Assembly (NCBI GenBank): GCA_963764165.1 | Contig: CAVXRD010000003.1 | Location: 256,001-320,000, forward strand | DNA from: an uncultured Verrucomicrobiae bacterium | GTDB lineage: Bacteria; Verrucomicrobiota; Verrucomicrobiia; Limisphaerales; Palsa-1400 | DNA length: 64,000 bases | Direction of reading: 5' to 3' | Shown: piece by piece, positions 21,717 to 61,394 of the stretch | Position numbering within the stretch: position 1 is the first letter of the stretch | Layout: each line of letters opens with the position of its first letter | Program-made: the position numbers and the translations under genes | The notes under the pieces: model-generated | What the model was told of the DNA's origin: nothing | Databases searched by the model: none | The model's input: only the letters and a program-made list of their open reading frames with translations

Positions 21717-21943
21717 GGTAGGGCGAGGCTCCTGCCGAGCCACGCGTCACAAGACGGCTCGGCAGGAGGCCCAACCAAAAGATTTGGTGAGAAGTGCCAA
21801 TGAACCAAAGATGGAATGCGGGACGCGGGGGCGCGTGCGCTCCCCGGATTCAGAGGCTTGAGGAGCACACGCGCCTCGCGTGTCGCGCTCGGCGCCCTCG
21901 CCGAGCGCTCCCCCGGACGGTTCATTGGCAGCCTCGCCCTGCC
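21717..21943. repeat. REP-like inverted doublet (family A, GGYAGGGCGAGGCTCCYGCCGAGCC) with second arm interrupted by an insertion
   Basis: Arm 1 at 21717-21741; arm 2 split into 21756-21768 and 21930-21943. Confidence 0.85.
21769..21929. mobile_element. 161-bp non-coding insertion with subterminal inverted repeat and duplicated AG (CT) core
   Basis: GCCAATGAACC (21796-21806) / GGTTCATTGGC (21919-21929); AG at both junctions; sister copy at 23585-23906. Confidence 0.72.
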
Positions 21944-22050
21944 ACAATTGCCACAGAATCCCCATTTTTCCATAAAATTTAAAGATTTCTTGGAAAAATC
22001 GTGCCGAAAAACCTCTGGTAGGTTTTCTGTTTCCAGACGACTGTGCAAAT

Positions 22051-22086
22051 CTGCTTCCATATGCATTATATGTCATATGGAAGCAG
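22051..22086. repeat. Perfect 13-bp inverted repeat with 10-nt loop
   Basis: CTGCTTCCATATG-cattatatgt-CATATGGAAGCAG. Confidence 0.75.
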
Positions 22087-22415
22087 TTGGGGGCGGACTG
22101 CCACTGAGCCGGAACAATTCAATTGGCTCCTGGGAGCGCGGTTGTCGATCGCCGTTTTCGGCGTCCCGCCGAAAACTCATCGTGCAATGGAATTTCACCA
22201 AACAATTTCATGCACCCCCGGCCGCGCATTGCCCTCGATGTTGCCGGGCCGCCCACATCGCCAGCGAATCCAAGCAAATCCCGGCTGATGTAACCAAATG
22301 TAGCCAAATGTAACCACTTTTTATGAAAAATCGGCCGATGATGCGCGAGTCAAAAAGCGCAATTGGAACCGTCGTGAGGATGACACGCCGGCGGGATTCT
22401 TACCACCGGTCCGCG

Positions 22416-23444
22416 CTACGGCTGAATCACCGTCCGGATGATTTCGGTCTGGGATTCCAGCGCGTCAAGTGTCTGGTTGACCTGGATCGCATCAAGGGGA
22501 ATGGATCGTGTAACGCTGGCGGGAAACTTCAACTTTCCACTCCGGGCGTATTCGAGCAGCAGCGGAATTTCCGAAGCCAGATGGTCGGACACACCGATGA
22601 TTTCGGCTTCGCGGTTGATCACGTTTTCATAGGGCGACACGCTGAAGGACTGCCGCATCAAGCCCGCCAGCGCCGCTCTTCCCAAACGACCAAGGCTCCG
22701 CACCGCGCCGTCCATCGTCACCGGCTTTCCGATGAGTTCCAGCGCGACGTCCACCCCTCGGCCACCGGTGGCATCCCGAATTTGTTCGGCGGCATCGCCG
22801 AGCGCGGGATCGATGGGAATGGCGCCCATTTCCCTGGCCAGCCGCAATTTGGCGGCGTTCGTGTCGACAGCGAAGACTCGGGACGCGCCCATTGCCATGG
22901 CCAGTTGCACGGCGGAAAAGCCAAGGCCGCCGAATCCAAAAATCGCGACCGATTCCCCTGCCCTCATCCGCGCCTTGCGCAACGCGTGCAGAGACGTCGC
23001 GGACGAACACATCATCACCGCGCCTTGCACGAAGGAAATTTCCTCCGGCAGCGCGAACAAACTGCGCGCCGGAATGCGCGCGAACTCCGCGTAGCCGCCG
23101 TCCTGGTGTTTCCCGATCATGCGCCCAGTGGCGCAGAATTGTTCGTGTCCGGCGAAACAGAATTCGCAACAGCCGCAGGTCGCCATGTAATGCACGCAAA
23201 CGCGCGCGCCCCTGGCAATATGTTTGACACTCGCGCCGACTTCTTCGGCCACCCCGGCGATTTCGTGCCCGGGCGTCATCGGCAACGGCTGCACTGGCGA
23301 TACTCCAGCGCGGTAATGCGCATCCGAATGGCAAATGCCCGCCGCTTTCACGCGCACCAACACGTCATCCGGACCGATTTCGGGCACAGGCACCTCGGCC
23401 ATTTCAAGAGGCTTGCCGATTTCTGTCAAACGAACAGATTTCAT
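22416..23444 (-). CDS. Zinc-binding alcohol dehydrogenase (MDR family)
   Basis: GICHSD, GHE, CGCCEFC...C structural Zn site, GFGGLG. Confidence 0.95.
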   Translation of the reverse strand: MKSVRLTEIGKPLEMAEVPVPEIGPDDVLVRVKAAGICHSDAHYRAGVSPVQPLPMTPGHEIAGVAEEVGASVKHIARGARVCVHYMATCGCCEFCFAGHEQFCATGRMIGKHQDGGYAEFARIPARSLFALPEEISFVQGAVMMCSSATSLHALRKARMRAGESVAIFGFGGLGFSAVQLAMAMGASRVFAVDTNAAKLRLAREMGAIPIDPALGDAAEQIRDATGGRGVDVALELIGKPVTMDGAVRSLGRLGRAALAGLMRQSFSVSPYENVINREAEIIGVSDHLASEIPLLLEYARSGKLKFPASVTRSIPLDAIQVNQTLDALESQTEIIRTVIQP

Positions 23445-23584
23445 CAAGCTGATATAGTGCGGAATCTGAAAGCAAAACTCAATGCGCTGCCCGCACGAAA
23501 GCCGGCGTTCGGCGAACCAGCAAGCTCGGCAGGGCGAGGCTCCCGCCGAGCCGTCCCCCATCCGCGAAGATGGCTCGGCGGGAG

Positions 23585-23906
23585 GCCCCAACCATCAAAG
23601 TTGGTGAGAAGTTCCGACGAACAAATTTCGCCTTGGGAGGTAGGGACGCCTCGCCGAGATTGTCTCAAAACTACAAAATCCTCAAAGTGTGTCAATACTA
23701 CGACTCTCTCATTTGCGATATGGCGCATTTTTATTTTCGGCGAGGGTGTTTTTGTGGTGCTTTTTAAAGCCATTTTTGAGTTTTGAGACAGTCTCCGCCG
23801 AGGCGTCCGGTTGCGCGTGAAGGCTTTTGTGGGCCGCACCGTTCAACGACGCCTCGCCCCGGACGCCTCGGCGAGGCGTCCTACCTCCACAAGACAGTTC
23901 GTTGGC
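23585..23906. mobile_element. Second copy of the AG/CT-core shell, carrying a family B REP doublet
   Basis: Same left end (GCCC(C)AACCA-N6-TTGGTGAGAAGT), similar right end (GTTCRTTGGC), same insertion point as 21769-21929. Confidence 0.72.
23656..23795. mobile_element. 140-bp AT-rich MITE with 17-bp TIRs and 4-bp target duplication
   Basis: GAGATTGTCTCAAAACT / AGTTTTGAGACAGTCTC (1 mismatch); CGCC at 23652-23655 and 23796-23799; removal restores GGGACGCCTCGCCGAGGCGTCC. Confidence 0.9.
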
Positions 23907-23960
23907 AGCCTCGCCCTGCCGAAACCTGCTTATGACAGCGGCAGTTGCCCCGTAACGCAG

Positions 23961-61287: not shown

Positions 61288-61394
61288 GGCAGGGCGAGAC
61301 TCTGTCGAGCCCTGATCAAGTTTTTAATTAATTCGACTAAGGATTCCCTCGATACCCAAAATCCACAATGGTCTCGACAGAGTCTCGCCCTGCC
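61288..61394. repeat. Uninterrupted REP-like family A variant doublet between convergent genes
   Basis: GGCAGGGCGAGACTCTGTCGAG ... CTCGACAGAGTCTCGCCCTGCC; single related arm near 52395-52420. Confidence 0.88.

Follow-up and report, generated by a model that had tools for sequence, protein, structure and literature searches.

Judged from their sequences, the two inserts that break REP doublets in the window analysed here (64,000 nucleotides) are members of a genome-wide family of about 25 small, gene-less elements that keep IS110-type ends, referred to below as shells. The shells have common ends and a fixed insertion site in varied hosts, and they carry REP cargo; an IS110 element with the same ends occurs in a relative, IS110 elements of the same clade contain guide-like segments, and neither the gene nor the RNA of this clade was found in the genome itself. 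It is likely that these elements were inserted individually, always at the same AG of a family A REP arm, by the recombinase and bridge RNA of a parent element acting in trans, a parent that has probably been lost here.

Two interrupted doublets and a family of gene-less shells

The window (G000:C3:256001-320000) belongs to an assembly of 7.0 Mb in 5 contigs that is 97% complete. The two broken family A doublets reported in the initial annotation were recovered at 21717-21943 and 23528-23920, with inserts of 161 bp (21769-21929) and 322 bp (23585-23906) and with AG on either side of both, as it had described (Table 1). The inserts have a common left end (79% over 39 nt) and right junction (86% over 36 nt); the subterminal inverted repeat noted earlier is also present, starting 27-28 nt inside the left end, with its partner adjoining the right core. 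The doublet at 61288-61394, previously taken as a related uninterrupted counterpart, is indeed uninterrupted, but it belongs to a sister REP subfamily and represents another target type. Copy 1, which folds into a four-way junction (z -8.5 and -9.4), is located upstream of a gene for a pyridine nucleotide-disulphide oxidoreductase; copy 2 is flanked on one side by a gene for a zinc alcohol dehydrogenase and on the other by a divergent gene without a Pfam match.

Table 1. Features of the two shell insertions and of the uninterrupted doublet, in window positions.
Feature	Position	Strand	Remarks
Host REP family A, intact first arm (copy 1)	21717..21741	+	This arm also borders a RAYT gene at another locus of the genome
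Host doublet linker (copy 1)	21742..21755	.	
Broken second arm, inner half (copy 1)	21756..21768	-	AG core 21767-21768 at its end; last 7 nt are the predicted target-guide match
Shell left end (copy 1)	21769..21805	+	Small hairpin at about 21774-21788, then left inverted repeat 21796-21805; layout as in the IS110 clade
Class 2 cargo (copy 1)	21806..21919	.	Hairpin array of another REP family, common to several other shells
Shell right end (copy 1)	21920..21931	+	Right inverted repeat 21920-21929, AG core 21930-21931; donor guide predicted to match the last 7 nt
Broken host arm, outer half (copy 1)	21932..21943	-	
Host REP family A, intact first arm (copy 2)	23528..23552	+	
Broken second arm, inner half (copy 2)	23572..23584	-	AG core 23583-23584
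Shell left end (copy 2)	23585..23622	+	Left inverted repeat 23613-23622
Class 1 cargo (copy 2)	23639..23885	.	Family B REP doublet; subtype at at least 94% identity only with shell ends
Nested 140-bp MITE (copy 2)	23656..23795	.	17 + 21 terminal nt common with IS1182-family element; 4-bp duplication 23652-23655 / 23796-23799
Shell right end (copy 2)	23897..23908	+	Inverted repeat 23897-23906, AG core 23907-23908
Broken host arm, outer half (copy 2)	23909..23920	-	
Uninterrupted doublet, sister REP subfamily	61288..61394	.	Different inner half; not the same target type

A census of the whole genome yielded 24 left ends, 18 of them paired with a right end. AG precedes 23 of the 24, and 22 of the 24 stand within two mismatches of the 13-nt family A host half; at the right junction, AG is present in 14 of the 18 paired shells, and the right-end pattern matches 20 times in this genome, compared to no matches for a reversed control. 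The 2-nt core without a longer duplication is seen at both window copies and at most of the census junctions. Under a single rule set, 22 family A arms are filled and 117 are intact, the latter constituting proper empty sites; thus the ends do not fall at random non-REP sites, nor do all arms of the subtype carry the motif, two alternatives that the initial annotation had itself raised. Paired shells measure 109-322 bp in 17 of 18 cases, the remaining one (1864 bp) holding an IS1182 gene; no DEDD recombinase gene was found inside the window inserts or the paired shells of this genome. Six left ends lack a right end, and beyond the census there are one more paired copy and eight right ends without a left end; these unpaired ends (six left, eight right) indicate that other processes also reshape the shells. 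Further irregular structures include a class 2 cargo bounded by inverted right ends on both sides (G000:C2:2207558-2207748) and one-ended chimeras at G000 C1:1377006 and C2:3082989.

The shell interiors are doublets of other REP families and fall into multi-copy classes; among the 22 filled sites, 12 hold class 1 (a family B doublet), five hold class 2, and five form a mixed third group. The earlier statement that the two window interiors are unrelated holds with respect to each other, but they are not unique cargo, since each belongs to such a class. They do differ in length, as was also noted, but mostly through a nested 140-bp MITE with a 4-bp target duplication: copy 2 is a 178-bp class 1 shell plus this IS1182-type MITE, the interior of which occurs in 22 copies in the genome. 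Another class 1 shell holds a full IS1182 element. A single spot in the window displays three nested layers of parasites, an IS110 shell in a REP, a REP in the shell, and an IS1182 MITE in that REP. The IS1182-family element (G000:C4:7716-9567) accounts for 29 tblastn matches in the genome, and both it and the 140-bp MITE insert into family B REPs at the loop, duplicating 4 bp.

Seven full class 1 copies of 178 bp are 88-96% identical (mean 93%), and no identical pairs were found among the 18 paired shells. When host linkers are compared, the nearest neighbour is an empty site for 19 of the 22 filled sites, including all 12 class 1 sites, and never another class 1 or class 2 site; about 85% empty-site neighbours are expected if hosts are drawn at random, so that the hosts show no clustering by class. 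One shell is inserted in a tail-to-tail family A pair and leaves its 8-nt spacer intact. Taken together, shell and cargo appear to have been inserted repeatedly into doublets that had already diversified. Tail-to-tail family A pairs at G000:C2:1649564, 2161682, 3006790, and 3336498 all have an 8-nt spacer.

The same shell is found in two further families of the order (genomes G307, G417, and G425), and a scan of 400 other genomes of the order with the left-junction pattern identified true shells in two, which implies a patchy distribution. About 30 shell loci were recognized by eye among 73 metagenome matches, some of them duplicated, and no transposase was enclosed by a shell in any of these approximately 30 loci. 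A minimal shell has only 6-8 nt between its inverted repeats and a total length of about 55 bp; such cargo-free shells are multi-copy in G307, and where cargo is present it varies by lineage and consists mostly of REP doublets. The exact left junction of this genome had no match in a collection of genome contigs, and the exact right junction had 29, corresponding to two shells, one variant arm, and otherwise chance matches. No shells were found in a search of 60 relatives; viral contigs gave one match, attributable to chance only. No IS110 element was found in the two other genomes richest in shells.

A related IS110 clade and its candidate guides

A screen for the parent started from 401 genomes, 118 of which match the family A arm; 41 were taken, and their 91 PF02371 matches, representing 89 loci, were checked for broken arms. 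One of the 89, L367 in genome G496, has shell-type ends within a family-A-type arm, in the order inner half plus AG, shell-type left end, 240-bp non-coding region, frameshifted IS110 gene, shell-type right end, AG, and outer half. Its ends are 1.6 kb apart, and its host differs from the family A halves by 1 of 13 and 3 of 14 positions. The two gene pieces match NF033542 with E 7e-12 and 1.5e-9, both below the curated cut-off; in BLASTN searches with the left region of L367, the best non-self matches are the minimal shells of G307 (E 1.4e-4, 79%). A second, truncated locus (L277 in G425) combines the shell left end with the first 70 positions of the non-coding region of this clade (nhmmer E 2.5e-4). 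By its ends and gene remnants, L367 is a decayed IS110-family element, a pseudogene of the parent type. A copy enclosing an IS110 gene, which the initial annotation had suggested looking for, therefore exists in a relative, but was not found in this genome; the objection that no IS110 gene carries these ends in the genome or its relatives does not hold.

Homologs of the clade protein occur in 42 of the 401 genomes at E 1e-12, and the clade at large is extensive, since of 8000 proteins scored, 5881 reach E 1e-50 or better; distant homologs (38-39% identity) are present in 3 of 30 other genomes of the family. The proteins are about 430-490 aa long, and an intact member, L372, contains both PF01548 and PF02371. 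In 17 close members, the right end consists of the 10-bp repeat, one base, and AG; the left partner of the repeat lies about 28-33 nt inside the left end in most of them, and 27-29 nt inside in the shells. Two members outside REP arms, L372 and L390, have the same right end as the shells. Short gene-less shells and tandem end arrays of the clade also occur beside full elements outside family A REPs (L380, L358, L353, L375, L341), and tandem arrays of parent-clade IS110 are present in genome G514 (L427, L436, L441, L444, L447, L449, L451-L454). In G514, two clade elements seem to target one another, in that the target guide of each equals the donor guide and right end of the other; in L380 and in copies from G521, the target guide is equal or close to a clade right end.

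The non-coding region at the 5' side of the clade genes resembles a bridge RNA. Its alignment-based fold predicts two arms with the guides in loops, and 26 of 42 predicted pairs have double changes; folds of single sequences were no better than shuffles (z 0.77 and 0.25), and a search of four IS110 loci against Rfam returned no match at the gathering score. In 13 elements with a single candidate core, a 7-nt segment of the first arm agrees with the element's own left flank and core at 62 of 65 non-core bases (permutation mean 29.8, 0/5000 permutations), and in 15 elements with a located end, a 7-nt segment of the second arm agrees with the element's own right end at 73 of 75 (permutation mean 52.1, 0/5000); both permutation tests ignore relatedness among elements. 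Eighteen further loci, after three already used had been dropped, gave 79 of 85 for the left flank and 72 of 75 for the right end; reduced to six distinct pairs each, they gave 24 of 30 (39/5000) and 27 of 30 (56/5000), respectively. A guide for the right flank did not emerge (15 of 36, permutation mean 13), in a run affected partly by a column shift and by tandem neighbours. With this failure, REP specificity beyond 7 nt is not explained by the guides.

Applied to the shells, these candidate guides come close to the observed junctions. The donor guide of L372 matches 13 of the 18 paired shells of this genome exactly, and the target guide of L367 is one mismatch away from nine hosts and two mismatches away from eight, or 17 of the 18 hosts of paired shells; overall, the shell junctions lie within 0-2 mismatches of clade left-hand guides, drawn from different relatives. 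Among the screened relatives, no intact element was found to combine a target guide for family A with the donor guide of the shells, and the guides of L367 each miss their own site by one base. The interpretation of the window inserts as non-autonomous IS110-type minimal donors, already put forward in the initial annotation, gains support from the ends of L367, the BLASTN matches to shells, and the proximity of the clade guides.

Probable parent loss, proposed mechanism, and alternative origins

Searches of this genome by tblastn, protein profile, and genome search did not find the clade protein in the 97% complete assembly, and its best profile match to the clade non-coding RNA region was not significant (E 0.19). 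The failure to find clade gene and RNA here and an average divergence of 7% between copies suggest that a burst took place in the past and that the parent was then lost; since there are also no identical shells, the copies in this genome are probably orphans of that burst, and their present-day mobility is doubtful. Four IS110 reading frames do reside in the genome, three of them in family B REPs at a different position; they were rejected as parents, as none has shell ends and their insertion sites differ. When their non-coding regions were scanned for shell junction words, 7-mers matched at 0-2 mismatches, a non-discriminating result. The resident elements include two identical IS621-like copies at the CT of a family B REP end (G000:C1:326815-327999 and C2:1263025-1264209), with a 9-nt segment in the 5' region one mismatch from the left flank; an IS1111-like element at G000 C2:1739k uses the same family B position.

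In the mechanism we favor, internal deletion of a parent IS110 element would leave only its ends, about 55 bp at minimum, and REP doublets of other families would then land between the inverted repeats. The recombinase would join the two AG cores into a circle, with one guide reading the last 7 nt of the right end and another reading the 7 nt to the left of the cut in the REP arm; shell and cargo would be amplified as a unit, and IS1182 and its MITE would enter the cargo later. Shell circles and movement in trans are assumed by analogy with ISPpu9 and ISEc11, which provide precedents for the movement of cargo between IS110 ends in trans (PMC12288879; PMC11187229).

The shell could instead be a REP-derived composite, in which one period of a tandem array of family A arms has diverged and is mobilized by the REP-associated tyrosine transposase (RAYT). 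This possibility was taken seriously because RAYT also cuts between C and T and joins strands (PMC3333891; PMC8266576), and because a RAYT-like gene (C1:422132-422611; NF047646 74.7 bits, cut-off 80) lies between inverted family A arms, which are also seen at its closest homologs. By eye, the right end plus the host half equal an arm in length and look similar to arm variants that occur free in G063, while the left end is reminiscent of a tail-to-tail junction whose spacer is 8 nt long. The four-way junction of copy 1 fits a composite as well, but is expected of any inverted-repeat element in a doublet. The same ends, however, bracket an IS110 gene with its non-coding region, and clade members outside REP arms share the right end; moreover, RAYT shows little site specificity, and its cuts fall in the inverted arm or the linker (PMC3333891), which leaves the use of one AG in 23 of 24 cases unexplained. 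Inverted arms matching those beside RAYT genes are found in the hosts and the cargo, and shell ends do not occur beside RAYT genes in 30 loci. Intact arms that seemed to replace the right end in metagenome loci turned out, in longer views, to be cargo, with the true right end downstream. A RAYT-driven REP composite is weaker than the IS110-derived reading, and we regard it as quite unlikely. Somewhat less improbable, though still unlikely, is a mixed history in which IS110 made a few founder insertions and most copies were spread by RAYT acting on the REPs of cargo or host, or through exchange among arms of nearly identical sequence. This genome does contain RAYT genes belonging to cargo families B and D, one-ended and chimeric copies exist, and one shell pair has common flanks and is a segmental duplicate; against this, the hosts of class 1 copies vary in linker type, their outer flanks are unique and the junctions exact, high-identity matches to the class 1 cargo subtype are found only together with shell ends, and cargo-free shells are multi-copy in G307. 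Ongoing mobility, driven by a resident IS110 element or by a parent in an assembly gap, is very improbable; four IS110 frames are present and an assembly of 97% completeness in five contigs could have such a gap, but the residents are only 24-29% identical to the clade proteins, have none of the shell ends, and in three of four cases occupy another position in family B REPs, and no two of the paired shells are identical.

RAYT-like genes for REP families A and B are located at G000:C1:422132-422611, C4:582520-583029, and C2:2170014-2170592; a PF01797 search missed them, and they were found through their flanking arms and tblastn. Among 301 genomes of the order, 91 have homologs of the family A-type RAYT, and these are bordered by many variants of the arm. 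In genome G079, which has the closest homolog (72% identical), a long head-to-tail array of family A arms (L214, on C1) lies directly downstream of that gene; 78 of the 86 family A arms in that genome are on one strand.

Comparison with known mobile elements

A literature search, with supplements and ISfinder outside its range, found no description of this shell family, and MITEPpu9 was the only comparable case; in the main text of a 2026 preprint on the size range of IS110 elements, the terms "non-autonomous" and "MITE" are absent (10.64898/2026.08.14.744561). Non-autonomous derivatives of bridge recombinases are barely described; the shells, ranging from about 55 bp to 1.86 kb and carrying hairpin-rich cargo, amount to natural minimal donors that bear on the end sequence a bridge recombinase needs. 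The shell family is no new mechanism. A broader proposal is that the parent clade reads DNA by mainly one-sided 7-nt guides together with asymmetric inverted repeats read by the protein, needs ends of about 55 bp, and has more than once given rise to gene-less shells, which capture REP doublets and provide these with a second route of spread across Verrucomicrobiota, one that is RNA-guided, with some members aiming at each other's right ends; we offer this as a tentative generalization that may well not hold.

By structure, the shells are IS110-derived non-autonomous elements of the MITEPpu9 type, with ends homologous to IS110 ends (as in L367 and L277) and many copies at one specific target that also occurs empty; they are neither autonomous IS110 elements nor members of the IS1111 group. 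MITEPpu9, the ssr9 module of ISPpu9 in Pseudomonas putida KT2440, is likewise a non-coding module with IS110 ends, AG at both junctions, and a location in REPs; its left box, about 40 bp long, contains an inverted repeat, and a remnant shortened by deletion has been described in which 69 bp separate the boxes (PMC12288879). In contrast to the shells, it carries a small-RNA gene and lives beside an active parent, and its circles have been detected (PMC12288879). Shell contents are REP doublets or next to nothing; a left inverted repeat is paired with a right one, and the shells occur in at least three families of one order, with no parent found in the genome.

REPINs and BIMEs mobilized by RAYT share features with the hosts and the cargo, which are ordinary REP doublets with cognate RAYT genes, and REPINs inserting into palindromes and into each other have been described (PMC3116915; PMC3333891; PMC3733652). 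The shell ends differ from these in being IS110 ends, not REP arms with a 5' tetranucleotide, and in using one fixed position.

The IS621-type bridge recombinases, which recombine at a 2-nt core (PMC11208160), share with the parent clade the 2-nt core at both junctions, a REP target, a long 5' non-coding end with two guide arms, and a short right end (PMC11208160). The initial annotation drew a parallel to IS621, but the parent belongs to a separate clade that is not IS621-like and only distantly related (phmmer E 3.6e-4 to PDB 8wt6). It has a 10-bp inverted repeat, the two halves of which lie 28-33 nt and 1 nt away from the cores, where IS621 has repeats of 2-3 bp (PMC11208160); guides are demonstrated on the left-hand side only, and the shells lack gene and RNA. 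The IS1111 group resembles the shells in its sub-terminal inverted repeats, its asymmetric ends, and the movement of end-flanked cargo in trans; its repeats, however, are 11-13 bp long with 7- and 3-bp extensions, and its RNA is usually downstream (PMC11187229), whereas the shells have a full 10-bp partner 27-29 nt inside and the parent RNA region is upstream. In the shells, the right repeat also has a second partner, 7 nt in from the left end, but this one is weaker (5.4 of 8 positions on average), and membership in the IS1111 group, including its 7/3 geometry, was set aside on these grounds. The shell family points to a large IS110 clade with an end layout unlike that of either IS621 or IS1111.
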